Below, piece by piece: positions 9,610-46,899 of a DNA stretch of 46,899 nt (within the stretch, counting starts at the first letter, position 1; the number at the start of each line of letters is the position of its first letter). Location of the stretch: the NCBI GenBank assembly GCA_018304985.1, contig JAGVWP010000012.1, positions 1-46,899 of the forward strand. Reading direction: 5' to 3'. This DNA comes from Candidatus Pacearchaeota archaeon (GTDB lineage: Archaea > Nanobdellota > Nanobdellia > Pacearchaeales > GW2011-AR1). The notes beneath the pieces were generated by a model. The model saw only the letters and a program-made list of their open reading frames with translations, did no database searches and was not told the origin of the DNA. Both the position numbers and the translations under genes were made by a program.

Positions 9610-9711
9610 TTCCGCCTCTTTTTATAATTGTATTAAAAACTCAAAACCACTTAATAAAACTATTGATAATAAAGGAGTAATTAATCTATTTAATCTATAT
9701 CTAAATCAAGC

Positions 9712-9800
9712 AAAATTTTTCACATAGAAAAATTTTATATTATCTATTTTCAAAAATATTTAGAAATCACACCATAACTTTACATAATTTATAGTATATA
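9712..9800 (+). repeat. Intergenic composite repeat, full copy
   Basis: Hairpin aaaatttttc-acata-gaaaaatttt at 9712-9736. B module gaaatcacaccataactttacataattta at 9763-9791. Confidence 0.8.
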
Positions 9801-9850
9801 AACTATAGAAAAATAAATTAAAGCTTACTAGGTCTAGCGAATAAAGCAGG

Positions 9851-9923
9851 GAAAAGTATTATGATATTTCAAAAATTATTCTTGAATCTATACAATACTA
9901 AATTTCTCATTTGAGAGAAATTT
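9851..9923 (-). repeat. Intergenic composite repeat, inverted copy (hairpin plus L module)
   Basis: Hairpin aaatttctc-atttga-gagaaattt at 9900-9923. The left flank is the reverse complement of agtattgtatagattcaagaa. Confidence 0.75.
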
Positions 9924-10046
9924 AACCTAATTTGAAGTAGGTAATAATTATTTAAATTAAAAAAATATTTATGAGTTATCATTAGTAGTTTGTTTTGTAA
10001 CTTGTTAGAGTAAGCTGCAGATATTTTAATTTAAGCGAATTTCTTA

Positions 10047-10454
10047 TTATCCCTTTAGCAACAATAATGCTTCTTCAGGACTAACAATCTTTATTCCCCG
10101 ATACTGTTTTAATTTTAATAAATGTTTATCTTGACTTATAACTAAATCCACATTTCCACTTATTCCAGCTTCAAGAAATTTATTATCATCTGGGTCATCT
10201 TTTATGGCATCAAGCTTTATTGTTGGCTCAACCATAATTGAATTTTCTATTATCAAATTTCTCCATTCTTCAATCATTTCATCGGGCATTTGGATTTTGA
10301 AATTCTTTAATGTTTCTACAAATTCATCTATAATCTCTACAGAACTGACTAACTCAAATTTTTTATTTTTCCACTCGTCTATGATTTGAGAACAAAAATT
10401 TCCTTCCCAAAAGATTCCGGAGACAAAAATATTAGTGTCAATTATTGCCATCAT
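10047..10454 (-). CDS. PIN-domain toxin
   Basis: N-terminal IIDTNIFVSGIF and C-terminal DDNKFLE..VISQDKHLL, typical of PIN_3-type toxins. 4-nt overlap with the antitoxin gene. Confidence 0.7.
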   Translation of the reverse strand: MMAIIDTNIFVSGIFWEGNFCSQIIDEWKNKKFELVSSVEIIDEFVETLKNFKIQMPDEMIEEWRNLIIENSIMVEPTIKLDAIKDDPDDNKFLEAGISGNVDLVISQDKHLLKLKQYRGIKIVSPEEALLLLKG

Positions 10455-10723
10455 TTTTTCCGAGCATGTTTGATTGCATCTTCTACATCAGACTCTTTTA
10501 TTCCTCTCTTTTTAGCAAAATCTCTTGTTTTTTTGAGCAGTTTATCAATTCCGCTAAAAGAAGGTATTTCCAACTTTTTTAATACAATTGTATTATCTTC
10601 TCCAATAACAACAAACTTTTCTCCGGTTTGAATCTTCATTCTGTCTCTCAAACTTTGAGGAATAACTACTTGCCCTCTTGAACTTACGCTCGTTATTTCA
10701 ACATTTTCCATTTTAACCTCCAA
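10451..10723 (-). CDS. AbrB/SpoVT-type antitoxin
   Basis: SSRGQVVIPQSLRDRMKIQTGEKFVV matches the swapped-hairpin AbrB/MazE motif. Confidence 0.7.
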   Translation of the reverse strand: MEVKMENVEITSVSSRGQVVIPQSLRDRMKIQTGEKFVVIGEDNTIVLKKLEIPSFSGIDKLLKKTRDFAKKRGIKESDVEDAIKHARKK

Positions 10724-13174: not shown

Positions 13175-13396
13175 ATTTCAACTATCCTTTTATTCTCTTT
13201 TTTAACTTATTATCTCCTTAAGAAATTAAGACGATTAAAATAGTTTTCTATGCTGTCAAAATGCAGGTTATGATGCTATTATTAATTTAAGTAAAATTAA
13301 TGGTATCTTTGCCCATTTATACAAGAGAGTTATTAAGTCTTTATTTATTTTAAAATTATTGAACAAGTTACCAAAACCCAATATTAAAACCCTAGT

Positions 13397-13515
13397 TTAA
13401 ATAGCTACCAAATCATGTTAAATTTCTCCCAAATGAGAAATTTAGTATTATATGGATTCAAGAACATTTTGAAATCATACCACATCTTCACCTAATTTAA
13501 ATGTGAAAGTTTCTG
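13397..13515 (+). repeat. Intergenic composite repeat, archetypal full copy (U-H-L-B-T)
   Basis: ttaaatagctaccaaatcatgtt, then hairpin aaatttctc-ccaaat-gagaaattt (13420-13443), then agtattatatggattcaagaacatttt, gaaatcataccacatcttcacctaattta and aatgtgaaagtttctg. Confidence 0.85.
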
Positions 13516-13659
13516 ATTTTTATTATTTATCATTTAGAGATTAGAAGATTCTATAAGTTATATACTATAAATTAATATGTCAAGAAACAACAACAATTTT
13601 AAACCCTATTAACATATAATATAAATAAGGAATATAAATAAGGAATAAAAAAGAGGAAA

Positions 13660-14141: not shown

Positions 14142-14945
14142 ATGCCACTATTGGAAAGAGTAAGACAAATGAAGCAGTCTGGAATGAATGAAAATGAAAT
14201 AGTAAAAGGGCTTCAGGAACAGGGAATCTCTCCAAGAGAAATTAATGATGCTGTTGCTCAGTCTAGGATAAAAGATGTTATTTCAAACCAGCCAATTTCA
14301 GGCATACCCTCACAAAATACAATGCAAGAATCATCTTATCCTGGAACAGAAGAGGCAGATGGTTATTCTATAGAAGGAATGCAGCCATCATTAATAAATC
14401 AGCAAGAACAGGCACCAAATATACCTATTTATGCAGAAGAATTAGGACAGTACCCTCAACCTCAGCAATATCCTGGTTATGAAGAATACTCTCAAGAGCA
14501 AACCAGCTACCCGCAACAAACACAAGAAGGGCAAGATTATCAGTCCTATTACGGAGCAGGATATGGCAGCAGCACTGAAACAATAAGTGAAATTGCAAGC
14601 CAGATGATTGATGAAAAACTTTCAAAAACAAATAAAATCCTTAGTAATTTAACTGAATTTAAAATAATTTTAGATGCAAAAGTTGATAAAATAGACCAAA
14701 GACTGCAAAGAATTGAGTTAATTATTGATCAGCTGCAAACTAATTTAATAAGAAAATCGTCTTCTCAAATTCAGGATATTGAAGATATAAAAAATGAAAT
14801 GAGGGGTATGCAAGAAGGCTTCAGTAAAGTCCTTAATCCTCTAACAGACAACATAAGAGAAATTGAAAGAATAAAAAGCAGAACAGAAAAATCAGGTATA
14901 AGCAAGCCAATTAAACAGATAAAATCAAAAATCAAGAAAAAATAA
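14142..14945 (+). CDS. Hypothetical protein: small helical N-domain, Q/P/Y-rich low-complexity linker, C-terminal coiled coil
   Basis: 267 aa. Linker sequence GQYPQPQQYPGYEEYSQEQTSYPQQTQEGQDYQSYYGAGYGSS. Confidence 0.5.
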   Translation: MPLLERVRQMKQSGMNENEIVKGLQEQGISPREINDAVAQSRIKDVISNQPISGIPSQNTMQESSYPGTEEADGYSIEGMQPSLINQQEQAPNIPIYAEELGQYPQPQQYPGYEEYSQEQTSYPQQTQEGQDYQSYYGAGYGSSTETISEIASQMIDEKLSKTNKILSNLTEFKIILDAKVDKIDQRLQRIELIIDQLQTNLIRKSSSQIQDIEDIKNEMRGMQEGFSKVLNPLTDNIREIERIKSRTEKSGISKPIKQIKSKIKKK

Positions 14946-16697: not shown

Positions 16698-16813
16698 GAT
16701 TATAAAACATAAACTCCATTTAAATATCTTTCGCAGCGAAATATTTAGAAGTTATTAAAAATCAGTAAATATCATAATCTAAAACCAACTTAAACAGACA
16801 ATAAATAAGGCAT

Positions 16814-16907
16814 AAATTTTCTTCAAATGAAAATTTATTTATGATGTGTTTTCAAAAAATGTACCATGATAATAATACAATCCCCCACTTATTTTAAGGT
16901 GAAATCT
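16814..16907 (+). repeat. Intergenic composite repeat, diverged copy
   Basis: Hairpin aaattttc-ttcaaat-gaaaattt at 16814-16836, followed by diverged L and B modules. Confidence 0.6.
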
Positions 16908-16985
16908 AATTATATTTTATTAATTATCCCCTGAATATTCTAATGTTATATAAGTTTTATGTAATAAATTAAAATAAAAAGAAAA

Positions 16986-17516: not shown

Positions 17517-17610
17517 TTTAAAAACTATTCGCTCATGCAAAATAGTTTTTAAAATAATGTTCTTGAATCACTACTATATCTATACCTAATTTAAATGAGT
17601 AAATTACTAT
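17517..17610 (+). repeat. Intergenic composite repeat with a different 13-bp hairpin
   Basis: tttaaaaactatt (17517-17529) pairs with aatagtttttaaa (17541-17553). It is followed by cttgaatcactactatatctatacctaatttaaatgagtaaattact. Confidence 0.65.
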
Positions 17611-17642: not shown

Positions 17643-17764
17643 ATAAATCATGCAAAATTTTTCACATAGAAAAATTTAGAATTATATATTTTTCAAAACC
17701 TTATTTTAAAATCACACCATAATTCTACTTAATTTATACATCTTAAGTTACTTATCATTAAATC
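17643..17764 (+). repeat. Intergenic composite repeat, full copy
   Basis: Hairpin aaaatttttc-acata-gaaaaattt at 17654-17677. B module 17707-17736. Tail acatcttaagttacttatcattaaat recurs exactly at 38486-38511. Confidence 0.85.
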
Positions 17765-17813
17765 AATAATGTTGGTTATTGCAAAGATTCAAATTTTAGA
17801 AATTTACTAAAGT

Positions 17814-18086: not shown

Positions 18087-18178
18087 AAATTAATTTAAAG
18101 GGGTGCTATTTATATACTTTTCTATAGTTCAGCAAATAAAACAGGAAAAAGGTTGCTGGATGCACGAAAAAGGAGAGG

Positions 18179-18300
18179 TCATAAAGAAAAACCTTGAATA
18201 AAAGGGGATGTCATAAGAAAAACCTTGGCACTTAAAAGGAAAGTTTAATAAAGAAAACCTTGGCACTTAAAAGGAAAGTTTAATAAAGAAAACCTTGGTT
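18179..18300 (+). repeat. Tandem repeat directly upstream of the 18309 ATG
   Basis: Perfect 35-bp unit aaccttggcacttaaaaggaaagtttaataaagaa at 18221-18255 and 18256-18290, with partial copies on both sides. A related motif lies at 19699-19726. Confidence 0.8.
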
Positions 18301-18308
18301 GTCTTTAT

Positions 18309-19017: not shown

Positions 19018-19527
19018 TTATACACAAGGAGTTTCTTTTCTAAATATCTCTCCAAAATTATTTATGCATGCATAAGCATCATCCTGATCATAAGGAAAAG
19101 CACCATCACTTCCTTTTAATGAAGAAACAGATATATTACCTTTATCTACATGAAGTCCGTCATAAAAATTTGTTTTTGCATCTACCTGCAATCTCCCTAT
19201 TCCTCCATAAGTATAAGATATATCAATCACCGGCCTATATGTTCCCTCAAAGGCAGGATATCCCCCTATACGAATAGAAGAGGGCTCAACAATTAATAAT
19301 CCATTACTAACATTTAATGTATTATATACTTCAACTGAATTACTTTTTAAATTTGTAAATTTAGCATCAATCTCTGCCTTAGTATAAACTTCTTGTGCAA
19401 GCGGCCCATATCCTCTAGCCGCCTTAAATCCTATAACATTCCCAGTTATATTAGCCGTAATCAAACTCGCAGCAACTGCAACAACAAGAACAACAGCAAT
19501 AATTACCATCCATTCTTTATTTTTCAT
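19018..19527 (-). CDS. Secreted or anchored protein, hypothetical (full-length paralog)
   Basis: Signal anchor MKNKEWMVIIAVVLVVAVAASLITANITGNV. GGAGG-like box 17 nt upstream of the ATG. Confidence 0.6.
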   Translation of the reverse strand: MKNKEWMVIIAVVLVVAVAASLITANITGNVIGFKAARGYGPLAQEVYTKAEIDAKFTNLKSNSVEVYNTLNVSNGLLIVEPSSIRIGGYPAFEGTYRPVIDISYTYGGIGRLQVDAKTNFYDGLHVDKGNISVSSLKGSDGAFPYDQDDAYACINNFGEIFRKETPCV

Positions 19528-19562: not shown

Positions 19563-19626
19563 TAATTATAAAATTAATAAAGAAAAATGATATATATATT
19601 TCGGTCTTAAAAATTGCATGAAATTA
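19563..19626. repeat. Conserved 5' flank (promoter-like, TATA-rich) shared with 24362-24425
   Basis: The 64-nt taattataaaattaataaagaaaaatgatatatatatttcggtcttaaaaattgcatgaaatta has about 5 mismatches to the second copy. Confidence 0.7.
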
Positions 19627-19654
19627 GAACTTTACTCTATAACTAACTGCGAAA

Positions 19655-19690
19655 AAGCTAATAAATCATTTTAAATTTCTCCTAATAAAA
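19655..19690 (+). repeat. Intergenic composite repeat, degenerate fragment (U module plus left hairpin arm)
   Basis: aagctaataaatcattttaaatttctcc. The right hairpin arm is missing. Confidence 0.4.
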
Positions 19691-19872
19691 GAAAAACTCA
19701 TAAAGAAAACCTTTGGTTGTCTTTATTATTTAGTTTTGTGATGATTCAAACATATATTGAAATGCCATAATACTTTTCTCCACTTTATCAGCTAAAAATA
19801 GTAGACTCCTTAAGTTAATTGGTAAATTAATTTTATCTAAAATCTTATATATACGCATTAATTTCAAGCTTA

Positions 19873-22800
19873 ATGGAAAAAATCTTAAAATTTCTCTTAA
19901 ATATCTCTCCAAGAGACTATCAAAAAGAAATTGTGAAAAAATGCATTGAAAAAAATTGTCTTGTTGTTCTTCCAACAGGAATTGGTAAAACTCTCATCGC
20001 TTTAATGCTGGCAATAAGCAGAATGCAAAGCCATCCTACTGAAAAAATTCTTTTCCTCGCTCCTACAAGGCCACTAGCCCAACAGCATTTTACATATTTC
20101 CAAGAACATCTTCCAGAATTATTTGCTCAAATGGATTTGTTCACAGGAAAAATAGAGGCAAATAAAAGAAAGGGTTTATGGGAAAGAGCAGATATTGTTT
20201 TTTCAACACCCCAATGCATTGGCGGGGAAACGAGTATTTTTACAGAAGATGGTCCAATCAAAATCAAAGACTTTTTTGAGCAATTTAACTTTAAACAAAA
20301 AAATCCCAATAAAAAATTATATACTGCAGAAATAAGCAAAAAAGTTTTGGGATATAAAAATAAAAAAATTAGTTTTGTAAATGCTACAAAAGCTATTAAA
20401 TTAGAAGTTGATAAAACACTTAAAATAAACACTGAAATTGGAAATTTCTTAGAGTGTACTCCAGAACATCCACTATTAACAATAGACTCTTTCGGAAACA
20501 TTATATGGAAAAAAGCTGAAAATTTAAGGCAAGGAGATTACATAGCAAGTATAAAAGAAATAAGTATGGAAGAAGAAGAAATTGATATATGGAAATTAAT
20601 AGAAAACTCGAAGTTAAAAGTATCAAATAAAGAAGATACACTAAACGTTTTACATTATTTAAAACTAAAAAATAATGTTCTCAAACTTCCTTTAAAAGAT
20701 TATTCAAGATTTAAATATAATCTTATCCCAACAAAGATATTTTTTGATTTAACAAAAAAATTAAATCTTCCTTATCCTAAAAATATGGAGTTTAGTGATT
20801 GGACAGGAAAAAGTAAGCCGATAACCCTGCCAAGATATCTTAATAGAGATTTAAGTTATGTGATTGGAGCGATGTTGGGAGATGGGCATTTAGGAAATAG
20901 AAAAGGGCATGGTTGTGAGGTGGTTTTTTCAGACCTAGACCGCGAGGAAATTTCTGCTGAATTTAAAAAAGTAATCTTAAATCTATTTGGAGAAGATATG
21001 AAAAAAGACATTAAGAAAGGATTAGTCTCTTATAACTCTGCTCTTTCAGAAGTATTTTTAAATTTAGGGGTTCCGAGAGGCAGAAAAGCATCAAGAATAA
21101 GGGTTCCTAAATTTATATTTTTCAGCCCAATTGAGTGTGTTGCAGGATTTATAAAGGGAATTTTTGATACAGATGGAAATGCTGGGAAGTATTCCGTTAG
21201 TATTTCAAGTGTTAGTAAAGATTTCATAACAGACTTAAAATGGCTTTTTTTAAAAATAGGGATTTTAGGCAATATCTCAAAAAGAAAAAATTTAGGAAGT
21301 ATAGGTAAAAGAAAAATTAAAGAATCGATAATATATACTTTTAGATTTTCTGGCCGAAGGCAACTCGAAAAATTTCTAGAAATTTGCAATCCAGATTACT
21401 CAAAATGCCGAAAATTGATAGAAAGTATTAAAAATACAAAAAGACCTTTTACAAGATCTAAAGAAATATTGCCAATTAAAGGGTTGCTTAATAAAGTTTA
21501 CCTTAATAATCAAGGTAAATTTGCAAGATACTTGATTTCCTACTTATCCGGAGAAAATTTACAAAAAATAAGTTTATTATCAAAAGGAAAAGAGGCTGAA
21601 AAACTTAAAGAACTCCTATCAAATTCGATAAGATGGACAAAGATAAAAAAAATAGAAGAATCAAAAGAAAAAATGATAGTGTATGATTTTACAATAGAAA
21701 AAGAACATAATTTTATAACTAATTATATAATAAGCCATAACTGCATTGCAAATGATGTAAAAGAAAAATTATATAATTTATCTCAGGTTTCTCTGTTAAT
21801 AGAAGACGAAGCTCATAGATGCGTTAAAAATTATTCATATACTTATGTTGCAAAAAAATACCTAGAACAAAAAGAAAATAACAAGGAAAACACCCGTATT
21901 CTTGGCCTCACAGCCTCTCCAGGAACTAATAAAGAGGCAATTAAAACAATTTGTAAAAACTTATCCATTGAAGAAGTTGAAATTCGAACTAGAGAGAGCG
22001 AAGATGTGAAAGAATATCTTCAAGAGCTGGAAATCAAGGTAATAAAGTTGGAATTCCCAAAAGAATTTGCTGAAATTCGCAATTTGCTTAAGAAAATTTA
22101 TGATAAAAAAACAGAAGAGCTGAAAAGCAGGCATTTGCTATTCGGACCAATTAACAAAGTAACCCTTCTCGAAGCACAAGGAAAAATAATGCGTTCACTT
22201 GCAACAGGTAATAAAAACTTTAATTTATTTGCAGGAGCTTCTGCAGCAGCACAGGCATTAAAAGTTCAGCATGCTCTGGAATTAATAGAAACACAAACAC
22301 TTTATGCCTTGGATAACTATTTCCAGACTTTATTTGAACAGGCTAGAAAAGAGCAGAGCAAAGCTGTTAAAAATCTTGTTGCAAATGCGGAATTTAATAA
22401 TGCTTACATACAAACAAAAAATCTTATTTCTCAAAATTTAGAACATCCAAAACTGCTTCAGTTAAAAGACCTTATTGAAAATAAAGTTGCTGAAAACCCT
22501 AAAGCAAAAATAATTGTTTTCTCGCAATACAGGGACAGCGTTACAAAAATCTGCAGAGAATTAAATTCTTTAAATAATGTTACTGCAAAGGTTTTTGTTG
22601 GCCAGGCAAAAAAAACTTTAAGTAATAAACCTGATAATAAAGAAAATACAACAGGATTAAGCCAAAAAGAACAGCAGCAAATAATTCAGGAATTTTCAAG
22701 AGGAGAATTTAATGTTCTTTGCGCAACATCAATTGCAGAAGAGGGTTTGGATATTCCAGAAGTGAATGCAGTTATTTTCTACGAGCCAGTTCCGAGCGCA

Positions 22801-23025
22801 ATTCGTAAAATACAGCGAGCAGGCAGAACAGCAAGGTTAATGCCAGGAGAGGTTATAATGCTTGTTACAAAAGCTACAAGAGACGAATCCTATTACTGGG
22901 CAGCTCATCACAAGGAAAAAAGCATGCACAAAGCCATATCTGCAATAAAGCAGGATTTAGAAAACGAAAAACTAAATTTTACAATTAATGAAAATGAGGA
23001 AACTGAACAGAAGAAGTTATTTTAA
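19873..23025 (+). CDS. hef: Hef/FANCM-type SF2 helicase (helicase part only), interrupted by an intein
   Basis: Motif I LPTGIGKT, Ia LAPTRPLAQQ, TPQ, DEAH (IEDEAHR), TASPG, QRAGRTAR. N-extein 19873-20214, C-extein 21742-23025, together 541 aa. Confidence 0.85.
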   Translation: MEKILKFLLNISPRDYQKEIVKKCIEKNCLVVLPTGIGKTLIALMLAISRMQSHPTEKILFLAPTRPLAQQHFTYFQEHLPELFAQMDLFTGKIEANKRKGLWERADIVFSTPQCIGGETSIFTEDGPIKIKDFFEQFNFKQKNPNKKLYTAEISKKVLGYKNKKISFVNATKAIKLEVDKTLKINTEIGNFLECTPEHPLLTIDSFGNIIWKKAENLRQGDYIASIKEISMEEEEIDIWKLIENSKLKVSNKEDTLNVLHYLKLKNNVLKLPLKDYSRFKYNLIPTKIFFDLTKKLNLPYPKNMEFSDWTGKSKPITLPRYLNRDLSYVIGAMLGDGHLGNRKGHGCEVVFSDLDREEISAEFKKVILNLFGEDMKKDIKKGLVSYNSALSEVFLNLGVPRGRKASRIRVPKFIFFSPIECVAGFIKGIFDTDGNAGKYSVSISSVSKDFITDLKWLFLKIGILGNISKRKNLGSIGKRKIKESIIYTFRFSGRRQLEKFLEICNPDYSKCRKLIESIKNTKRPFTRSKEILPIKGLLNKVYLNNQGKFARYLISYLSGENLQKISLLSKGKEAEKLKELLSNSIRWTKIKKIEESKEKMIVYDFTIEKEHNFITNYIISHNCIANDVKEKLYNLSQVSLLIEDEAHRCVKNYSYTYVAKKYLEQKENNKENTRILGLTASPGTNKEAIKTICKNLSIEEVEIRTRESEDVKEYLQELEIKVIKLEFPKEFAEIRNLLKKIYDKKTEELKSRHLLFGPINKVTLLEAQGKIMRSLATGNKNFNLFAGASAAAQALKVQHALELIETQTLYALDNYFQTLFEQARKEQSKAVKNLVANAEFNNAYIQTKNLISQNLEHPKLLQLKDLIENKVAENPKAKIIVFSQYRDSVTKICRELNSLNNVTAKVFVGQAKKTLSNKPDNKENTTGLSQKEQQQIIQEFSRGEFNVLCATSIAEEGLDIPEVNAVIFYEPVPSAIRKIQRAGRTARLMPGEVIMLVTKATRDESYYWAAHHKEKSMHKAISAIKQDLENEKLNFTINENEETEQKKLF
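20215..21741 (+). mobile_element. Intein (509 aa) with a LAGLIDADG homing endonuclease domain
   Basis: Starts Cys (STPQ|CIGGETSIF) and ends SHN, followed by +1 Cys (CIANDV). Block B TPEHPLL. LAGLIDADG motifs LSYVIGAMLGDGHLG and VAGFIKGIFDTDGNAG. Confidence 0.85.
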
Positions 23026-23066
23026 ACGATAAAAAACAAAATAAAAAAGAAGAAAGAGAAAATAAT
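22976..23066 (+). repeat. Direct repeat copy 1: hef 3' end plus the A/G-rich spacer
   Basis: ctgaacagaagaagttattttaa...ataaaaaagaagaaagagaaaataat recurs at 23892-23976. Confidence 0.8.
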
Positions 23067-23072
23067 CGCTTA

Positions 23073-23450
23073 TTAATTATTATAGGAGGAGTATTCTATT
23101 AACGGGCTAACATATCTATTTTTTTGAATGGGGGGTAATTGCTGATATATTTGCTTATCTTCTGAATAAAGAATTATTGCAATAAACCAGTTATTTCTAT
23201 AATCTGCCTGCACCAGCTCTACCTTCTTTAATTTTTTAAAAAAATTTTTATCTACATCATTATTTAATACACTTAAAAATTTGCTGACATCAAATATCTC
23301 TAAACCGACAATTTCTCCATTTTTTCCCAAATCAATATTTAAATACTCATTAAATTCTATTGACTCTTTAATAGGTTTATTAAAATCAAAGATGCTTAAA
23401 ACGTCGCTAATACCATCATATTCAAAATCAAATCTAATATATTTATTCAT
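23073..23450 (-). CDS. DUF2283-like protein, putative antitoxin
   Basis: YDGISDVLSIFDF...GEIVGLEIFDVSKFL matches the DUF2283 pattern. 4-nt overlap with the upstream gene. Confidence 0.55.
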   Translation of the reverse strand: MNKYIRFDFEYDGISDVLSIFDFNKPIKESIEFNEYLNIDLGKNGEIVGLEIFDVSKFLSVLNNDVDKNFFKKLKKVELVQADYRNNWFIAIILYSEDKQIYQQLPPIQKNRYVSPLIEYSSYNN

Positions 23451-23891: not shown

Positions 23892-23976
23892 TTTTACAAC
23901 TAATGAAGATGCTGAACAGAAGAAGTTATTTTAATCTGAAAAAAAGAAAAATAAAAAAGAAGAAAGAGAAAATAAT
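23892..23976 (+). repeat. Direct repeat copy 2: relic of the hef 3' end plus the spacer
   Basis: Translates FTTNEDAEQKKLF*, compared with the hef C-terminus FTINENEETEQKKLF*. Confidence 0.8.
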
Positions 23977-23993
23977 AATTAATTAAACTAAAA

Positions 23994-24350
23994 TTAAGGA
24001 GAACAACAAATATACTCTACTCCCTCATATTCATTTGGACTTTTATGACCTACGTTCGTATCACAAGTAACCAATTCTATATGTTGAGGTTTAGAGTTAT
24101 CCTCAAGAGTCGTTATCTTTAAACCAAATAGACATCTACGACTACCATCAATATGAGAATTGCATATTTCATCACCATTAAAACCATCATTATCATCAGG
24201 AAAACTATTAGATCCATAGAATGGTGAGCGAACACACTTATTTAACATATTCAAAACATCATTTGTATTAGCTACTTGAACCTGTCTTCCAAATCCCTGC
24301 CTTATAACAACATTTCCAGTAATATTAGCAGTTATCAGCGAAACAGCCAC
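23994..24350 (-). pseudogene. 5'-truncated paralog of 19018..19527 with an unrelated Cys-rich C-terminal part
   Basis: Shares SLITANITGNV and the 5' flank with the paralog. An ~80-nt deletion removes the ATG, the GGAGG box and most of the signal anchor. Only a GTG start remains. Confidence 0.5.
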
Positions 24351-24361
24351 TGCAACATTCT

Positions 24362-24425
24362 TAATTATAAAATCAATAAGGAAAAATGATATATATATTT
24401 CGGTTTTAAAAATTACATGAAATTA
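24362..24425. repeat. Second copy of the conserved promoter-like 5' flank
   Basis: See 19563-19626. Confidence 0.7.
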
Positions 24426-28851: not shown

Positions 28852-28919
28852 ATCTAAATCTCTAATAATATATATTAAACTTATATTTAAACTTTGGGAA
28901 TTTAAATATTAAGAATATT

Positions 28920-28968
28920 CTGAAATCATACTATACTTTTACCTAATTTATTCGAGAAAGTTACTATG
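28920..28968 (+). repeat. Intergenic composite repeat, B/T module only
   Basis: ctgaaatcatactatacttttacctaatttattcgagaaagttactatg. Confidence 0.7.
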
Positions 28969-29077
28969 TTTTAAATTTAAGCTATTCAATATTCAATTAA
29001 TTTTTTTATATTTTCAAAACTTAAAAGAATAACTGCGTAATGCTTGAGCAAAAAGAAAGAATGAAGCAGACAAATTA

Positions 29078-33711: not shown

Positions 33712-33960
33712 ATGTATTCTGTTGAATTTTCAGAAACAGCAGAAAAGGAATTTAATAAGCTTGAGGAGAATGTTCAATTTAGGGTTGTAAATGTTATGGA
33801 AAGAATAAGAATCAGGCCTTATCATTTTATAAAAAGAAAAGAAGGAACAAGCTATTTTATAGCAAGAATAGGGGGACATAGGGCAATTCTGAGCATAGAT
33901 GATGTAAGAAAAACAATTTTTGTTCTTGAAGTTGGCCACAGAAAAAATATTTATGATTAA
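33712..33960 (+). CDS. RelE/ParE-family toxin
   Basis: FIARIGGHRAILSIDDVRKTIFVLEVGHRKNIYD is a typical RelE C-terminus. Confidence 0.7.
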   Translation: MYSVEFSETAEKEFNKLEENVQFRVVNVMERIRIRPYHFIKRKEGTSYFIARIGGHRAILSIDDVRKTIFVLEVGHRKNIYD

Positions 33961-34442: not shown

Positions 34443-35693
34443 TTATTCCAAGAGCCATTTCCATAGGGGAATAAATTTTATGACTGCTTTATTGCCAAAC
34501 CACTCTACTTTTTCTTCTTTGTCAGTATCTTCAGTTATAATTAAGAGATTATTACATTTTAATTCTTTTCCTGCCTTAATAATTGCTCTTATTTCTCTAT
34601 TTTTAGTTTGTAAATCTTTTATATTAAAACAAACCTGTATCAATTGCTTAACTTTCAAGCCTTCTTTAATTACAAAATCAACTTCTTCCTGCTGTTGATT
34701 TTTCCAATAGTAAAACCTTAATTTTCCATCAACTTCGTCTTTCTTCAATTTACAAGCAACAAGGTTTTCATAAAGTTTTCCTAAATCCGGGCTTGTTTTA
34801 AACGATTTGGCATGAATAAATCCATTATCTATACAATAAATTTTCTTATTTGAAGACAATTGCTCTTTGACTTTATAAGAAAATCTGCTTACACTAAATA
34901 AAATGAAAGATTCTTCTAAAAAACCAAGATATTTTTCAATTGTATGCGAGCTTTTAATCTTTCCAATTTTTGCTAGTGAATTATAAGAATATTCATTTGC
35001 AATATTTGAAATAAGATATGTTGCTAAATCTTCAATTTGTTTGGGATTTCTTATGTTGTATCTTTTTATAATATCTTTATATAATATTGAATTAAATAAA
35101 AGCGAGAGATATTCTTTTAATTCTACTTCTTTTGATAATATTTCTGGGTAACCCCCATTAAACAAATATTTTGATAGTTTTTCTTTTGTTTCAGTATTTG
35201 TTAATTCTTTATTTTCAAATTTAAGATATTCTTTAAATGAAAATGGAAAAATATTAGTTAGTAAATGCCTTCCAGTTAAATGTGTTGCTAATTCTTTACT
35301 TAAAAGATTTGAATTGCTTCCAGTAATAATTAGTTTATAACCCTGCCTTTGTAGTCTATTGGCAAATAATTCCCATTTAGGAAGATTTTGAATTTCATCA
35401 AAAAGAACAAGTTTCGGATTATTATAAATAGAGTTCATAGCAGTGACTATTTCATTATAATTATCTACTTCAGCCAGCTTTTCATCATCAAAATTAACAT
35501 AACCAAATTTCTCCTGTTTATTCAAGAAGTGTATGGCAAAAAATGATTTTCCCGCTCTTCTTGGTCCAACTATCACTTTTATCAAGTCATTATCTAATTT
35601 TAAATTTTGATTTCTTTCAATATACTTTTCATTGAGTTTTGCTTCAATCTCTCGTTTCTGCAAAGTTAAAATCTCTTTTATTTCTTGCAACAT
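34443..35693 (-). CDS. AAA ATPase with a DUF4143-like C-terminal domain (paralog 1)
   Basis: Walker A GPRRAGKS, Walker B VLFDEIQ. C-terminal EEVDFVIKEG (nuclease-like E-x-D..K). Confidence 0.75.
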   Translation of the reverse strand: MLQEIKEILTLQKREIEAKLNEKYIERNQNLKLDNDLIKVIVGPRRAGKSFFAIHFLNKQEKFGYVNFDDEKLAEVDNYNEIVTAMNSIYNNPKLVLFDEIQNLPKWELFANRLQRQGYKLIITGSNSNLLSKELATHLTGRHLLTNIFPFSFKEYLKFENKELTNTETKEKLSKYLFNGGYPEILSKEVELKEYLSLLFNSILYKDIIKRYNIRNPKQIEDLATYLISNIANEYSYNSLAKIGKIKSSHTIEKYLGFLEESFILFSVSRFSYKVKEQLSSNKKIYCIDNGFIHAKSFKTSPDLGKLYENLVACKLKKDEVDGKLRFYYWKNQQQEEVDFVIKEGLKVKQLIQVCFNIKDLQTKNREIRAIIKAGKELKCNNLLIITEDTDKEEKVEWFGNKAVIKFIPLWKWLLE

Positions 35694-35746
35694 AATATTT
35701 ATATTACAATATAGTTTATAAATATTTGTATTATGATTATCTTAAT

Positions 35747-35778
35747 TTATTCGGTTTATGTAGGAGATTTAATCCTAA
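35747..35778. repeat. 32-nt exact direct repeat, copy 1
   Basis: ttattcggtttatgtaggagatttaatcctaa. Overlaps the stop codon of 35775..36995. Confidence 0.9.
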
Positions 35779-36995
35779 AATACACCTTCACCCAACCATT
35801 TCCAAACAGACAATACTTTTATTTTTTTATTATTAATACTAAGCTCATCATCTTGTTTATAAGTTAAAATTAGTCCATCTTTTAAATTAAATTTTTCTAA
35901 CGCTTCTAATAATCCTCCTATCTCTCTATCTCTATTGTCTTCATTTAAATCAAAGCATACTTGGACAGCTTTTGTAATTTTTGCCCCTTCTTTTATAACG
36001 AAATCACATTCTCCTTTTTCTTGAAAGTAAAAAATGTCTCTATACCTTTTTCTTAAGTTAACAAAAACCAGATTTTCAAGCATTTTACCTTTGTCTTGAG
36101 AAAAAGAAGAAGAATTGGTGTTGGTTAATCCATTGTCAATTGAATATACTTTTTTTGGGTTAACCAATTGTTTTTTCAATGAATAATCAAACTTGGGAAT
36201 TGTAAAAAGCAAGTAACTATCTTCAAAATAAGAAACAAAAGATATAGCGCTATTAGTTGAACCCAAATTAAATGTTTTTTTAAGATTATTATATGAAAAT
36301 TCTTTCCCAACATTAGTAAGCAAATACAATGCCATTTCTCTTAAAGACTTTAAGTTTCTTAATTTATGCCTAATTGCAATATCCCGGTTTAGAACATCAT
36401 TTAATAATTCTTGTAAAATTGTAGATTTCTTATACTTCAAGTATTCTGGAAAACCTCCATTAGTAAAGTATTCTTCAAATGATTCAATATTATGTTTTTT
36501 ATTCATTAACAATAAAAATTCATTAAATGAAAATGGAAATAATTCAAATCTCAAATGCCTCCCAGTTAATCTTGTTCCCAGTTCTTTACTTAATAGAGAA
36601 GCATTTGAGCCTGTTATGACAACATATTTTTTCTTATCAAGTAAAGTTCTCACAAAAAGTTCCCATTTTGGAATGTTTTGTATCTCATCAAAAAAATAAT
36701 AATTCTTTTTTCCATATTCTTCTAAAAATATTTCATCGAGTCTTTGGAAGTCCTCAACTTCAAAATTAACTGTCCTTATGTCATCAAAACTAAAATAATA
36801 AAAATCTTTGGCTTTTTTCATAAGCTGTTTTAGTAAGGTGCTTTTTCCGCATCTTCTTACTCCTGAAAGAACTATTGTAAAGGGTATTTCTACATTGATT
36901 TGTTTAATAGCTTCTCTTTCAATGTTAGCTTCTGCTAAATCTAGACTTTCTCTCTGCGTTCTAATTATATTTCTTAAAGTTTCTTTTAATATCAT
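35775..36995 (-). CDS. AAA ATPase with a DUF4143-like C-terminal domain (paralog 2)
   Basis: Walker A GVRRCGKST, Walker B YFFDEIQ. C-terminal GECDFVIKEG. Confidence 0.75.
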   Translation of the reverse strand: MILKETLRNIIRTQRESLDLAEANIEREAIKQINVEIPFTIVLSGVRRCGKSTLLKQLMKKAKDFYYFSFDDIRTVNFEVEDFQRLDEIFLEEYGKKNYYFFDEIQNIPKWELFVRTLLDKKKYVVITGSNASLLSKELGTRLTGRHLRFELFPFSFNEFLLLMNKKHNIESFEEYFTNGGFPEYLKYKKSTILQELLNDVLNRDIAIRHKLRNLKSLREMALYLLTNVGKEFSYNNLKKTFNLGSTNSAISFVSYFEDSYLLFTIPKFDYSLKKQLVNPKKVYSIDNGLTNTNSSSFSQDKGKMLENLVFVNLRKRYRDIFYFQEKGECDFVIKEGAKITKAVQVCFDLNEDNRDREIGGLLEALEKFNLKDGLILTYKQDDELSINNKKIKVLSVWKWLGEGVF

Positions 36996-38405: not shown

Positions 38406-38453
38406 CTCACTCTAAAATATACGGAATTTTTAAACATAACTATTGTTAAAAAT

Positions 38454-38512
38454 CTTGAATCACATAATAACTCTGCCTAATTTACACATCTTAAGTTACT
38501 TATCATTAAATT
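38454..38512 (+). repeat. Intergenic composite repeat, B/T module
   Basis: cttgaatcacataataactctgcctaatttacacatcttaagttacttatcattaaatt. Confidence 0.8.
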
Positions 38513-38544
38513 ATCATAAATATATCTAAACCTAATTGATGCTT

Positions 38545-38604
38545 AAAAACCAGGTTAAATTTCTCTAAACGAGAAATTTTATATTATAATGATTCAAAAC
38601 ATCG
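38545..38604 (+). repeat. Intergenic composite repeat, U/H/L modules
   Basis: Hairpin aaatttctc-taaac-gagaaattt at 38557-38579, followed by tatattataatgattcaaaac. Confidence 0.8.
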
Positions 38605-38686: not shown

Positions 38687-39725
38687 GTGGTGATTAAAAT
38701 TCCAAGCAAAAAAAAAACATATTCTAATTGCTATTATTATTGCTTCTTCTATATTAATAATTATTGCAAGTTCAATTAACCTTATTTTCTTCAAAGAAAT
38801 TCCAAAATCAGAAATACAATTAAGCCCGACTGATCCGCCGGCAGCATATTTATCAATAAATGGGGTTGGAAAATTATCCTCACAAACATTATGGCTAGCT
38901 AGCCAGGGAGAAGTTTATAGCTTTCATGTAATAGGAGAAAATGTGGATAGAACTGAAATGATTCTCCAGGGAGAAAATTATGGTTCATATTTGACAGTAA
39001 AAGAAAATCAAATGGATTTTAGATTTTTAGGTTCTGCTGGACCATATCGATCTTTAACAATTAATGGGAAGAAAAATGGAGTTAAAGTCCCCTTAGCATA
39101 TTTTGGCATAGAAACAGATACTGAAGGGCTTGTCTATCCTTATGAAGTAATAGAGACATATACTAGTAAGACTGAATCAATGAATGATCAAGAAGCTACT
39201 TATTACCCTTGTATGAAATTTAAAGATATACCGGGAACAGCTATTTATAAAGAGTTAAAGCGCAAAGATTGGTATGGTGAAGAGAATATAGTTGACATAG
39301 AACAAACAAGTAAATATGATACTCCTCCTGAGGAATATCCTTCAACAACCGAATGTGAGATTAGAAAACCGGGAACAGAACTGCCCGATAAACATTTTCT
39401 CTGTAGGGGTTACCTTGTTAAAGAAGGAAATATGTTTGATAGGACACTGGGGTGTTTTAAACTCGATAGCATATCTGCATTGTTCGTAAAAACCTTTTGT
39501 TATGAAGCACCTACCTCAGACAAAGATATATTAAGGCAAGAAGCAGTAGATATAACTAGCTGGACTCAATATGACATAAACAATTTTATTGCCTCTTCAA
39601 CAGGGTGCAGCGGAATAACAGAATTATATGACTGGAGACCTAAAGAACCTCCTGCAGAACCAATTATAACCGCTTCTAGTGAAGAAGAATGTTCTCGACT
39701 TCTTGATCCAGGTTGTGAAGGATAA
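38687..39725 (+). pseudogene. Secreted Cys-containing protein whose start and signal anchor are out of frame at an A10 tract
   Basis: GTGGTG ATT AAA ATT CCA AGC, then A10 (38708-38717). The 38943..39725 frame continues upstream as KKKHILIAIIIASSILIIIASS. Deleting one A would fuse the two frames. Confidence 0.5.
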
Positions 39726-39728
39726 TTT

Positions 39729-39780
39729 CTTGAATCATGCCATAACCCTGCCTAATTTATCAATGTAAGTTGCTAAGCTT
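39729..39780 (+). repeat. Intergenic composite repeat, B/T module
   Basis: cttgaatcatgccataaccctgcctaatttatcaatgtaagttgctaagc. Confidence 0.8.
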
Positions 39781-39795
39781 ACCAGTTTAATTTAA

Positions 39796-39862
39796 TTAAA
39801 TAGCTATAAAATCATGCTAAAATTTTCCTAAATGGAAAATTTAATATTATATGATTTCAAAT
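39796..39862 (+). repeat. Intergenic composite repeat, U/H/L modules
   Basis: ttaaatagctataaaatcatgct, then hairpin aaattttcc-taaat-ggaaaattt at 39820-39842. Confidence 0.8.
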
Positions 39863-40820: not shown

Positions 40821-40860
40821 ATTTATTATAATAAACCTAACTAAACCTTATCTAACCTGC

Positions 40861-40955
40861 TTTAAATCGGGCAAAATTTCTCTAAACGAGAAATTTTTTT
40901 ATTATGTGATTAAAATACTTTTTGAAAACATGCTATACCTCTGCCTAATTTTTTA
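40861..40955 (+). repeat. Intergenic composite repeat, U/H/L/B modules
   Basis: Hairpin aaatttctc-taaac-gagaaattt at 40874-40896. B module ttgaaaacatgctatacctctgcctaattt. Confidence 0.8.
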
Positions 40956-41069
40956 TACTTATATGCTAAAGTTTAAATTATCTTAGTAAGCCACACAAAA
41001 AGATAATAAAAACAAAGCATATTTCTCACAATAATCATATTTATAATATTAAATAACTATTTACATAAA

Positions 41070-41837
41070 ATGCCAAAATTAATTAAATTAGTTGCCCTGC
41101 CATTAATTGCGCTTTCTTCATATTTTCCCCTGCCTCTAAACGAAGTAGCATTTGCAGAACAAGCCCAAAAAACAGGGACAATTCAACAGAATACTAAAGA
41201 TGAAAATGAAGAAGAAACAGCATTTCAGAAAAACTTGCAGATGCTTAATAGAAACATTGCGGGAAATTTAGTAAAAAGGATTGAATCAGGAGAAAAGAAA
41301 GAGTATCGGTTAAATAGAAAATTTTCAAATGGCGGGGAAATTTTCCAGGTTTCTTTTTTTTACAGAACTTCAGATAAATCATTTCAAATTAAAATAAAGT
41401 CTGCTTTGAAAGAAAGTTTGCTTACTACTCTATTATCAAATACTTTAGAGATAACTGATTCTCCAGATCCTCAAGGAAATTACGGAGCAATAGATTCTAT
41501 AAAATTAATTCATAAAAATAATGAAAACAAAGATAAGCCAATATCTGATTCTTTTTACTTAGAATATCCTTTTACACCCGCGATGAAAGCTGAATTAAAT
41601 CAGAGATACGCAATGGTTTTATCATGGGTTGGATTAAATAAAAGCCCGTCTATTACTTATTTATGCCAATTCGACAAGATTTACGAACTTGCTGGAAAAG
41701 AAAAAACGGAAGAATTATCAATATACAACCCAGATAAAGAATTTCAGGAAAAAACAGGCAAAGAAGCAAAGCAAAGATTAAAAGATTTATTCAGAGACAG
41801 GCAAAACTTAGAGTTAATGCTCTATTTATTTCAGTAA
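41070..41837 (+). CDS. Secreted hypothetical protein
   Basis: Sec-type signal MPKLIKLVALPLIALSSYFPLPLNEVAFA. Confidence 0.5.
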   Translation: MPKLIKLVALPLIALSSYFPLPLNEVAFAEQAQKTGTIQQNTKDENEEETAFQKNLQMLNRNIAGNLVKRIESGEKKEYRLNRKFSNGGEIFQVSFFYRTSDKSFQIKIKSALKESLLTTLLSNTLEITDSPDPQGNYGAIDSIKLIHKNNENKDKPISDSFYLEYPFTPAMKAELNQRYAMVLSWVGLNKSPSITYLCQFDKIYELAGKEKTEELSIYNPDKEFQEKTGKEAKQRLKDLFRDRQNLELMLYLFQ

Positions 41838-41864
41838 TCTTTTAATAAAAATATCAAAAACTAT

Positions 41865-41914
41865 TCCGAAATCATGCCGTAACTTTACCAGATTTATACA
41901 CAAAGGTTGCTATG
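41865..41914 (+). repeat. Intergenic composite repeat, B/T module
   Basis: ccgaaatcatgccgtaactttaccagatttatacacaaaggttgctatgc. Confidence 0.75.
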
Positions 41915-41950
41915 CTTTATTATTTATTTAATGCGATAACAATATTAATT

Positions 41951-42054
41951 AATAGATAAATAAAGCTAAATTTTCCTAAATGGAAAATTTTATATTACAT
42001 TATTTTCTAAACATACCATATCTCTCCCTAATTTTCACGCGAGAGCAACTATTC
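41951..42054 (+). repeat. Intergenic composite repeat, full copy
   Basis: Hairpin aaattttcc-taaat-ggaaaattt at 41968-41990. B module ctaaacataccatatctctccctaatttt, then cacgcgagagcaactattc. Confidence 0.8.
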
Positions 42055-42276
42055 TTAAATAGATTAATTTAACTAGCGAGTTAATTTAGTATAACCAATA
42101 TGTTTTTCTTCATTTTCAAAATTGATATAATCTCTGAATTCACTACTAAAGCTCAATTCTACGGCGTTATCACTACTCATTTCAAATGCCATAGATTTAT
42201 AAGTTTCAAACTCTGATAAAAGTAATTGCCATTAGAAGTGAACAATGAGTGAAAGGAGGTTAGTAAAAAAGAAAAA

Positions 42277-43815: not shown

Positions 43816-43884
43816 ATAAGAAAAAGTTTAATTATAAAGTTTGCTATCATATGTATAATTAACATAAATCTAATTTAAGCAGTT

Positions 43885-43980
43885 AATAAAGTATGTTAAA
43901 TTTCTCCTAAAAAGAGAAATTTAGTATTGTGAAAATTCAAAAACAGTATTTGAAATAATATCTCACCCTACTTTGTAGTC
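43885..43980 (+). repeat. Intergenic composite repeat, diverged full copy
   Basis: Hairpin aaatttctc-ctaaaaa-gagaaattt at 43898-43922. agtattgtgaaaattcaaaaacagtatttgaaataatatctcaccctactttg. Confidence 0.7.
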
Positions 43981-44021
43981 TTGATCTAGTTCATTCCATA
44001 ATATACCTTTATTAAATATCA

Positions 44022-44393
44022 TTGCTTAATATTAATATGATCAAATATAATCTTAAAATAATCTCCCTGATTATCTCAGTTATTGGTATTTTGATTCTTC
44101 TCATTTATCTTAACATTTCAGAGCAAAAAATAACAAAAATATCTTCAATAAACGAAAAAATGGCAAACAAACAAGTAAAAATTCAAGGCACACTAATAAG
44201 AACTAGCACACTAAAAGATGACTTTACAGCATTAATAATAAAAGACCTTGAAAAAGAAGGAAAAATAGAAGCTGTATGTAATTGCCCTAATTTAAAGGCT
44301 TATATTAATCAGAACCTCTCTATTAATGGAAAAATTTCTGAATATAATAATAAACTGCAAATTCGCGCTGATAAAATAACTCTACTAAAATGA
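44022..44393 (+). CDS. Membrane-anchored OB-fold protein
   Basis: N-terminal TM helix, then KQVKIQGTLI...KISEYNNKLQIRADKITLL, which resembles tRNA_anti-type OB folds. Confidence 0.45.
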   Translation: MLNINMIKYNLKIISLIISVIGILILLIYLNISEQKITKISSINEKMANKQVKIQGTLIRTSTLKDDFTALIIKDLEKEGKIEAVCNCPNLKAYINQNLSINGKISEYNNKLQIRADKITLLK

Positions 44394-44406: not shown

Positions 44407-44721
44407 CTAATTTAATCTCTCAATAATTTCATCTTTCACTATTCTTTTTTTCTCTTCAGATACCTTAAAAATATATTTTTTAATCATTTGTTCAGATATA
44501 GTAAAAATATAATTTAGTTTAATAACACTATCTCTAACAGCCCCGTCTTTTTTGCTTAATAAAATGCCCTTCATTTTAGGATTGCTTGTAATGCCTGCAA
44601 CTACCACATTGCCAAAATCTTCAAAAAGAACCAAAACAGGCCTTGTTTTAATTTCAAAAGTATCTGTATACTGAACTTCTGCTAAAAGAATATCTCCAAA
44701 ATTATAAGATTTATTTATCAT
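44407..44721 (-). CDS. MazF/PemK-like toxin
   Basis: GDILLAEVQYTDTFEIKTRPVLVL. 4-nt overlap with the antitoxin gene. Confidence 0.6.
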   Translation of the reverse strand: MINKSYNFGDILLAEVQYTDTFEIKTRPVLVLFEDFGNVVVAGITSNPKMKGILLSKKDGAVRDSVIKLNYIFTISEQMIKKYIFKVSEEKKRIVKDEIIERLN

Positions 44722-46632: not shown

Positions 46633-46680
46633 AAAAATAGCATAAATGATCATATCCTGAATTAAATTAAATAATAAAAT

Positions 46681-46801
46681 TAGCAACTTTCTCATATAAA
46701 TAAGGTAAAATTATGGTATGATTTCAAAAATATTTTATGAATCTATATAATACTAAATTTTTCTCTAAGAAAAATTTAACTTGATTTATAGTTAGTTAAA
46801 T
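46681..46801 (-). repeat. Intergenic composite repeat, full inverted copy
   Basis: Hairpin aaatttttc-tctaa-gaaaaattt at 46755-46777. The reverse complement reads agtattatatagattcataaaatatttttgaaatcataccataattttaccttatttatatgagaaagttgcta. Confidence 0.8.
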
Positions 46802-46804
46802 ACA

Positions 46805-46899
46805 CTAAACCATAATACTTCCCTCCTTTTCAAAATAGTTTGAAATTCTATCCATCGCTTCTCTTACTGTTTTAAAATTGCTATTTTGCAAAACATCTC
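46805..46899 (-). CDS. 3' end of a minus-strand gene that runs off the window
   Basis: Open frame ...DVLQNSNFKTVREAMDRISNYFEKEGSIMV*. Function unknown. Confidence 0.3.
   Translation of the reverse strand, partial: DVLQNSNFKTVREAMDRISNYFEKEGSIMV

Follow-up and report, generated by a model that had tools for sequence, protein, structure and literature searches.

Repeats in the spacers of groundwater Pacearchaeota: a probable family of MITE-like elements

What is it that occupies spacer after spacer in the 46,899 nucleotides of DNA analysed here (the window)? The genomes of DPANN archaea are small and densely packed with genes, and the forces that shape the DNA between those genes are poorly understood. 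A first-pass annotation, made from the letters of the window alone, saw a composite repeat of five modules, U-H-L-B-T, and offered three readings: a MITE/REP-like element, a family of small structured RNA genes, and a reiterated protein-binding module. I propose, with somewhat more belief than doubt, that the family is a lineage-specific, non-autonomous, orphan MITE-like mobile element. On the last of the three readings the evidence is neutral.

The host is a DPANN archaeon, as judged by the closest relatives of the window's ATPase in a species-level genome collection, all from MAGs labelled Pacearchaeota, Woesearchaeota or Nanoarchaeota. At the protein level the two nearest reach 93% (L001) and 91% identity (L002, from genome JACPLR01, 'NC_groundwater'). 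The window has a G+C content of about 30%, and its genes include those for a Hef helicase/nuclease with an intein and a FlaI/T2SSE-type ATPase; no tRNA genes were found in it. These archaeal genes, together with the Pacearchaeota relatives, are the ground for rejecting the idea that the B box of the repeat is a bacterial promoter, whether of the -35/-10 or the extended -10 kind. The native promoters of the window look like cGAAAG-N-TTTATAAAT, some 30-40 nt upstream of start codons. The same sequence has been assembled from several samples: 12 of the 14 contigs of this population that were compared (L178-L184, L189-L192, L194-L195, plus L193) either are the window or differ from it by a single 24-nt indel, and L193 has in addition a few clustered small changes beside one repeat copy. 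The indel, at window position 1521, is the sole difference from most of these assemblies and lies within the decayed hairpin of the repeat copy at 1488-1615.

There is little room for doubt that the repeat family is real. With up to 3 mismatches, the B core TGAAATCATRCCATAWCT occurs 10 times in the window against 0.36 times expected from shuffled sequence, and the palindrome of the hairpin, AAATTTYTC-N4-8-GARAAATTT, occurs 8 times against 0.00. Repeat finding on the window recovers the families directly. An nhmmer profile built from 7 seed copies gives 17 hits in the window at E<0.01, and a profile of 195 positions gives 15 at E<1e-3. In an alignment of 37-40 copies, conservation by position is strong. 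Eighteen of the 19 segments listed by the first-pass annotation reappear where it had put them, and the nineteenth (1520-1610) is a decayed copy. It was right, too, that the repeats are never inside genes and code for nothing: no hit of the 195-position profile falls within an ORF of at least 70 aa, and the unit of about 200 bp contains no ORF. Its statement that they fill most of the larger spacers is only just true: of the 24 spacers that reach 150 nt, 13 hold a copy, or 14 if the decayed one is included. The copies, 13 on the plus strand and two on the minus (9782-9942 and 46669-46800), are set out below with the decayed copy, short forms and flanking repeats.

1488-1615, plus: decayed copy with a U box, a remnant of H1 and a B box (1572-1589), below the profile threshold
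9676-9795, plus: U-H1-L-B copy, ending in the B 3' box, where the next copy truncates it (profile hit 9700-9795)
9782-9958, minus: full copy (profile hit 9782-9942, E=5.6e-28), its X end overlapping the B 3' box of the previous copy
13350-13360: left flanking direct repeat TTAAAATTATT, a possible target-site duplication read from the sequence, weak alone
13362-13565, plus: the archetype, full-length (profile hit 13392-13579, E=2.6e-45)
13362-13391, 13392-13419, 13420-13443 and 13444-13466: its left end, U, H1 and L
13467-13502, 13503-13516, 13517-13549 and 13550-13565: its B, T, T-rich linker and X (..TCTATAAGTTATATAC)
13566-13576: right flanking direct repeat TATAAATTAAT, partner of 13350-13360 and identical to it at 8 of 11 positions
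16785-16973, plus: full copy, old, with its ortholog present at L002 6467-6635 (profile hit)
17517-17609, plus: short form, a different hairpin (AAAAACTATT..AATAGTTTTT) followed by B-T (profile hit 17551-17609, E=0.005)
17643-17775, plus: U-H1-L-B-T copy (profile hit)
19652-19801, plus: K variant, with one K unit (19686-19726) in place of the H1 loop and right arm, then L-B-T (profile hit)
28885-28973, plus: short form, a U1-like box joined to B-T (profile hit)
38428-38512, plus: short form, the left-end box CATAACTATTGTT fused directly to B-T (found by the 7-seed profile)
38542-38600, plus: partial copy, U-H1-L only (profile hit)
39724-39781, plus: B-T unit that begins at the stop codon of gene 38943-39725 (profile hit)
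39796-39860, plus: partial copy, U-H1-L only (profile hit)
40852-40973, plus: U-H1-L-B-T copy, old, about 68% identical to its ortholog at L177 1541-1698 (profile hit)
41854-41930, plus: short form, a U-like box and B-T, orthologous in L177 (profile hit)
41957-42101, plus: U-H1-L-B-T copy, missing from the orthologous spacer of L177 (profile hit)
43870-44022, plus: U-H1-L and a decayed B-T (profile hit)
46669-46800, minus: copy with an IS630-type insertion sequence in its U box (profile hit)

The full element is larger than first supposed. The archetype had been drawn at 13397-13515 and the unit put at about 100-130 nt; the copy is real, but its homology runs from about 13362 to 13565, and the complete unit of about 200 bp consists of a variable left end, U, the hairpin H1, L, B, T, a linker and X. 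The five modules had thus been placed in the correct order, with the left-end segment and X missed. Young copies and one clean empty site place the left end 30-45 nt upstream of U as originally drawn; it is made of about 10 variable G/C-rich nucleotides followed by the box CATAACTAT. H1 is an A/T-rich hairpin of 9-10 bp. The linker after T is T-rich, with an oligo-T (T5) tract on the top strand only, and many copies continue through it to X, the conserved right end (..TTCTATAAGTTATATAC), which reads ..TATAAGTTATATAC. The right end ..CTATAAGTTATATAC is a weak inverted match to the left box, so that the terminal match is imperfect and spans about 9-12 bp, (G)CATAACTAT.. near the left end against ..ATAAGTTATATAC at the right, with the left box inset by about 10 nt. 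In most full copies the motif TAWAAWTTAA follows directly after X. Occupancy and information content are highest in B-T, and U and B have the direct repeat AAATCATGC in common. The supposedly free-standing B/T modules in fact carry left-end or U1 sequence fused to B, and so they and the other short forms are read as internal deletions of the full unit.

How much of this is structure? H1 is paired in 97.6% of cells of the alignment, and at one of its pairs 24 copies have UA, 12 have CG and one is mismatched. The old copy at 40852-40973 and its L177 ortholog show a compensatory switch between CTC/GAG and TTC/GAA. An extension of the H1 stem is only partly kept across copies, a proposed helix between L and B is paired in only 66% of cells, and no base-pair covariation beyond H1 was found in the consensus fold of the aligned copies.

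A second repeat family, K, is built of units some 34 nt long (AAAAGGARAGnTCATAAAGAAAAACCTTGG). In at least five copies of the main family a K unit replaces the H1 loop and right arm, with the constant junction AAATTTCTCC/TAAT...TTTATT/ATTTAG. Four tandem K units end 1 nt before the ATG of the gene at 18309, and the last of them (GGAAAGTTTAATAAAG..) is BRE/TATA-like and 30 nt upstream of that ATG. The K sites are:

Window 18160-18308: the four tandem units
Window 19686-19726: the unit within the K variant
L002 9555-9648, L140 3780-3900, L129 3208-3362, L142 4974-5160 and L178 18440-18540: further K sites

The family has a narrow distribution. Three or four related groundwater Pacearchaeota together hold 123 profile copies in 347 kb, or 4.1% of the DNA, a density of about 350 copies per Mb that is probably an overestimate, since the DNA was sampled around known copies. 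The carriers are the population of the window (where copies beyond the window lie in L178, L189 and L190), genome JACPLR01, and JGI and Hainich groundwater contigs 78-89% identical to JACPLR01. Of the 80 loci (1.3 Mb in all) that surround the ATPase gene in archaea related to this one, L002 alone has copies; the profile found none in the 78 loci from other Pacearchaeota and Woesearchaeota (L003-L080). A pattern scan of 185,579 species genomes returned at least 97 stretches, of which 20, among the matches listed, come from JACPLR01; among the matches listed, those from JACPLR01 were the only ones that the profile confirmed. A stricter pattern applied to JGI metagenomes returned 20 stretches, all from groundwater and all confirmed by the profile, 9 of them matching JACPLR01 loci at 78-89% identity. 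No copies were present in the collections of viruses, plasmids and phages that were searched. The family is specific to a small clade of groundwater Pacearchaeota.

Then there is the evidence that its members have moved. A copy of 199 nt at L140 6034-6232 has TTAAATTTTA on both sides, and the orthologous site in L199 is exactly empty, with only the two 11-mers in tandem. Spacers holding window copies 41957-42101 and 13362-13565, and one holding L002 4642-4809, are likewise filled in one genome only. Of 28 sites that could be compared, most hold a copy in both genomes; the insertions there are thus old, and the orthologous copies in them are 65-75% identical as against about 82-88% for the flanking genes. 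Young copies exist as well. The archetype, from 13362 to about 13568, is about 97% identical to L140 3643-3960, at non-orthologous loci of two genomes, and it is 86-88% identical over 183 nt to copies in L147 and L140. At 9676-9958 copies are nested or overlapping, tail to tail. Between species an inversion and several indels are bounded by copies, and strain assemblies fork at a copy. Among the near-identical assemblies of the window's population no differences in presence or absence were seen: that population has no recent activity. About 336 nt to the left of window position 1, L189 11560-11860 and L190 7729-8029 are identical up to a reverse-oriented B/T unit and wholly different thereafter: either the strains differ by a rearrangement here or the assembly has forked at the repeat.

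Several copies are flanked by AT-rich direct repeats of 10-12 nt, each specific to its copy (L140_6020, L166_7050, L142_4974 and L212_11163, with a weaker case at window 13362-13565):

L166: CAAAAAGTTAAC, twice
L142: ACTATAAGTTAT and ACTATAAATTAT
L212: AAAAAGTTAAT and AAAAACTTAAAT

When the flanks of each copy were compared with those of other copies, the mean best match was 7.95 against 7.79, which is not significant, because the flanks of all copies share the AT-rich motif TAWAAWTTAA. Target duplication is therefore supported by individual cases only, and even at the L199 empty site the tandem 11-mers could have been there beforehand, in which case the element was inserted without duplication.

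From these cases I infer the following chemistry. The element would insert into AT-rich sequence resembling TAWAAWTTAA, as is found at stop codons and TATA boxes, and 10-12 bp of the target are probably duplicated in the process. Duplication of this kind would point to a transposase of DDE type acting in trans, for example one of the IS4/ISH8 type. After insertion, copies would decay in place, and internal deletions, some of them between the AAATCATGC boxes of U and B, may together with nested insertions have produced what looked at first like separable modules. There could also be a side effect. The right arm of H1 with L (GAGAAATTTAGTATTATAT), and also X, resemble the BRE/TATA consensus of the native promoters, and oligo-T, a termination signal in archaea, stands on one strand of the element, so copies could donate portable promoters or polar terminators to their neighbours.

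A MITE of the ordinary sort ought to have a transposase somewhere that recognizes its ends. In size, lack of coding capacity, copy number, dispersal, intergenic location and insertion polymorphism the family is what one expects of MITEs; a cognate transposase with matching ends was not found. In 223 kb there is no multi-copy protein family, and in 150 further ORFs no family with two or more members was a transposase. The only insertion sequence seen is one of IS630/Tc1 type, about 1.29 kb long, at window 46795-46899 and continuing in L178 16893-18178. Its HTH_32 and DDE_3 ORFs are split, and it has inverted repeats of 13 bp (GTTAAATACACTA) as well as a TA duplication. It sits in the TTAA of the U box of copy 46669-46800, and its ends (AATACACTA..) are unrelated to those of the element: it simply inserted into a copy. 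One candidate account was that this IS630-type element moves the repeats by TTAATTTAWA inverted repeats with a TA duplication. It was rejected, because the filled and empty pair shows TAWAAWTTAA beside X to be target sequence; the true left end also lies some 30-45 nt further out than TTAATTTAWA would place it. Nor is the missing transposase to be found in the genes bracketed by half-elements, since ORFs 38943-39725 and 41070-41837 are unrelated to each other and match no family; the corresponding insert in L207 encodes a TrmB regulator.

The terminal inverted repeats, moreover, are short, imperfect and asymmetric, and copies tend to face the same way. Of 60 pairs of adjacent copies separated by more than 500 nt, 46 have both members on one strand (p=4e-5), and one-strand runs extend over contigs of 47-83 kb: to the 13 plus and two minus copies of the window may be added 14 plus and one minus on JACPLR010000007, a contig of 70 kb, and 10 minus and one plus on JACPLR010000011. 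Gene strand persists at 65%, and relative to adjacent tandem genes 40 copies are antisense and 29 sense. The strand bias is stronger than its coupling to gene direction, and it is not expected under cut-and-paste DDE transposition.

Could the element instead move as single-stranded DNA? An HUH-type enzyme (as in IS200/IS605-like 'PATE' elements or IS91-like rolling circles), or some other route linked to replication, would recognize the hairpin and place the element next to a constant target motif, always facing the same way with respect to the replication fork. That would account for the long same-strand runs, a conserved hairpin with compensatory changes, inverted termini that are so weak, and a fixed motif that abuts X in most copies. 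The clean empty site fits as well, for taking out the 199 nt restores it, and no duplication need be assumed should the tandem 11-mers be ancestral; so does one young copy with 30 nt that resemble the flank of another locus, as in one-ended transposition. All the same I consider it unlikely. IS200/IS605 and IS91, to my knowledge, make no flanking direct repeats such as those that accompany several copies here. H1 stands some 55 nt in from the left end, and near the right end there is no second hairpin that convinces. The 223 kb surveyed showed no multi-copy protein family, nor did the families listed for 150 further ORFs include a transposase. Doubtful to the same degree is a broader version, in which hairpin-guided insertion in one orientation relative to replication, by single-stranded DNA or by an undescribed archaeal route, would be joined to the co-option of the boxes for transcription punctuation in a regulator-poor DPANN genome.

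A different view is that the copies are host cis-regulatory cassettes under selection, in which the hairpin would stabilize or end transcripts, the promoter-like boxes would start them and oligo-T would act as a polar terminator, and transposition would have had no part in the spread of the cassettes, which would be due to recombination, gene conversion or duplication. In old orthologous copies the H1 arms are 84-87% conserved where neighbouring segments are 65-73%, a hint of constraint beyond what a merely selfish element should require, and the CTC/GAG to TTC/GAA switch took place in situ. The likeness of H1 and its neighbour L, and of X, to the native promoter consensus is matched by the related K unit before the ATG at 18309; oligo-T is polar; B-T units begin at or just past stop codons; and every copy in the window is in a spacer that contains a gene start. 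Yet copies occur in both orientations relative to the genes beside them. Orthologous copies have drifted to 65-75% identity, many are truncated, and orthologous spacers work with or without one. The native promoters are separate from the copies and lie nearer the genes, between copies and start codons, which makes the copies something added to the spacers and not the promoters themselves. I regard selection for cassettes as quite unlikely to be the explanation.

The evidence for a small non-coding RNA gene family, as the first-pass annotation had also suggested, is poor, and I judge it improbable. The candidate would be a B-T transcript of about 55 nt, begun from the promoter-like box in H1/L and ended at T5. 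B-T is indeed the best retained and best conserved part, with a TATA-like box about 27-33 nt upstream of B and the T5 tract after T, and the plus-strand RNA folds somewhat better than shuffled sequence (z=-2.2). The consensus fold, however, yields H1 alone, which lies outside such a transcript, its 9-bp stem being the only one kept by covariation, and the L/B helix is paired in just 66% of cells. Orthologous copies drift at near-neutral rates. Rfam gave no hits at the gathering threshold over the whole window, which agrees with the first-pass annotation's not having recognized a known RNA family in it, and at a relaxed threshold on the archetype only chance-level hits (E=1.8 and 7.3). No C/D-box or other recognizable RNA motif is present. 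C/D-box sRNA in particular fails for want of a RUGAUGA box, and the CTGA that ends T is not conserved.

Finally, it is highly improbable that the L/B inverted repeat (11-7-11: TATGGATTCAA GAACATT TTGAAATCATA) is a dif- or attC-like site of a tyrosine recombinase, with half-elements bracketing gene cassettes: three complementary pairs of halves (window 38542-38600 with 39724-39781, window 39796-39860 with 41854-41930, and one in L207) do flank 1.1-2 kb of genes and break at model position 72-84 or thereabouts, and the common orientation recalls cassette arrays, but the junctions lack hybrid sites, on which ground the L/B palindrome was rejected as such a site, neither half has a partner arm beside it, the arms are as poorly paired as the L/B helix above, the halves enclose ordinary genes that have no relation to one another (an unknown protein, a GTPase, a TrmB regulator), and the nearest thing to an integrase is a sub-threshold 'Recombinase' match at 14142-14945.

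Other features of the window deserve mention for their own sake. The Hef helicase/nuclease gene (19873-23025) has its intein, with a LAGLIDADG domain, at about 20221-21742, and the intein is missing from the ortholog in L002. Window 10047-10723 encodes a PIN-domain toxin and a MazE-type antitoxin, a pair that the syntenic region of L002 does not have, and in the adjoining spacer the repeat copies are arranged differently in the two genomes. Toxin-antitoxin and other defence-like genes are abundant (268-1372, 33712-33960, 34443-36995 and 44407-44721), and comprise HEPN with nucleotidyltransferase, a ParE-like toxin, two paralogous AAA_14/DUF4143 ATPases and a PemK-like toxin. Upstream of the minus-strand genes 19018-19527 and 23994-24350 stand the two copies (19563-19626 and 24362-24425) of a repeat of 64 nt, which are 94% identical, and a further pair, 22993-23076 and 23902-23986, consists of gene 3' ends with an A-rich tail. 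The leader 5' of gene 42277 (window 42120-42276, L177 2700-2864) is strongly conserved between genomes and holds a promoter-like CCATAGATTTATAAG and a GGAGGT ribosome-binding site; unlike the leader, the repeat copies beside it are poorly conserved.

What follows if the family is MITE-like, as I propose? It marks the points where related genomes differ, by indels, by an inversion and by the presence or absence of a toxin-antitoxin pair, and is likely a driver of rearrangement and of changes in expression in its lineage. It also breaks contigs in metagenome assemblies. If its orientation is truly tied to replication, it offers a handle on the direction of replication, and on an unusual route of transposition, in archaea that have not been cultivated; otherwise it is one more lineage-specific MITE.

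How, then, does the family compare with systems already known? It is not a REP/BIME family, not an Rfam family and not, convincingly, a family of structured RNAs. BIMEs are built of GC-rich REP palindromes, imperfect, 20-40 nt long and often in inverted pairs, that are tied to RAYT transposases; the stem here is A/T-rich, of 9 bp, inside a unit of 200 bp that lies mostly in one orientation. The MITE/REP-like reading of the first-pass annotation is supported by dispersal, lack of coding capacity, narrow lineage, presence and absence at orthologous sites, flanking repeats at some copies and a mixture of ages. Pneumococcal BOX elements and enterobacterial BIMEs resemble the family in having modules of fixed order, present or absent, with stem-loop potential and a place between genes. 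They are bacterial and unrelated in sequence, whereas the 'modules' of the family are apparently deletion products of one 200-bp unit. PATEs derived from IS200/IS605 and the REP/RAYT system share with it a hairpin, poor or absent terminal inverted repeats, a chromosomal bias of orientation and a fixed motif at one end, but the family differs in the 10-12 nt repeats that flank several copies and in its single robust hairpin, which is distant from the end, where a PATE has subterminal hairpins at both ends; the 223 kb surveyed showed neither a Y1 transposase gene nor a multi-copy protein family.

The closest likeness is to the prokaryotic MITEs, such as SM/SMN of Sulfolobus, the Correia elements of Neisseria and the IS231-derived MICs. 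These too are short, non-coding and intergenic only, with tens to hundreds of copies in a narrow lineage; they too have subfamilies that arose by internal deletion, presence and absence at orthologous sites, flanking direct repeats and promoter- or terminator-like sequence. Unlike them, the family has weak, asymmetric terminal inverted repeats, a strong strand bias and no cognate transposase that could be found. High MITE loads in some DPANN genomes are already known, these genomes being among the densest carriers in a census of prokaryotic MITEs, with maxima of 146 per Mb in an Altiarchaeum and 105 per Mb in a Woesearchaeon (PMC11602168). Against those maxima stands the figure of about 350 per Mb given above, probably an overestimate from DNA sampled around copies. 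What is new, then, is this family, notable for how densely it occurs, for the mosaic of its decay products and for a puzzling strand bias; it works like a MITE family and most probably is one.
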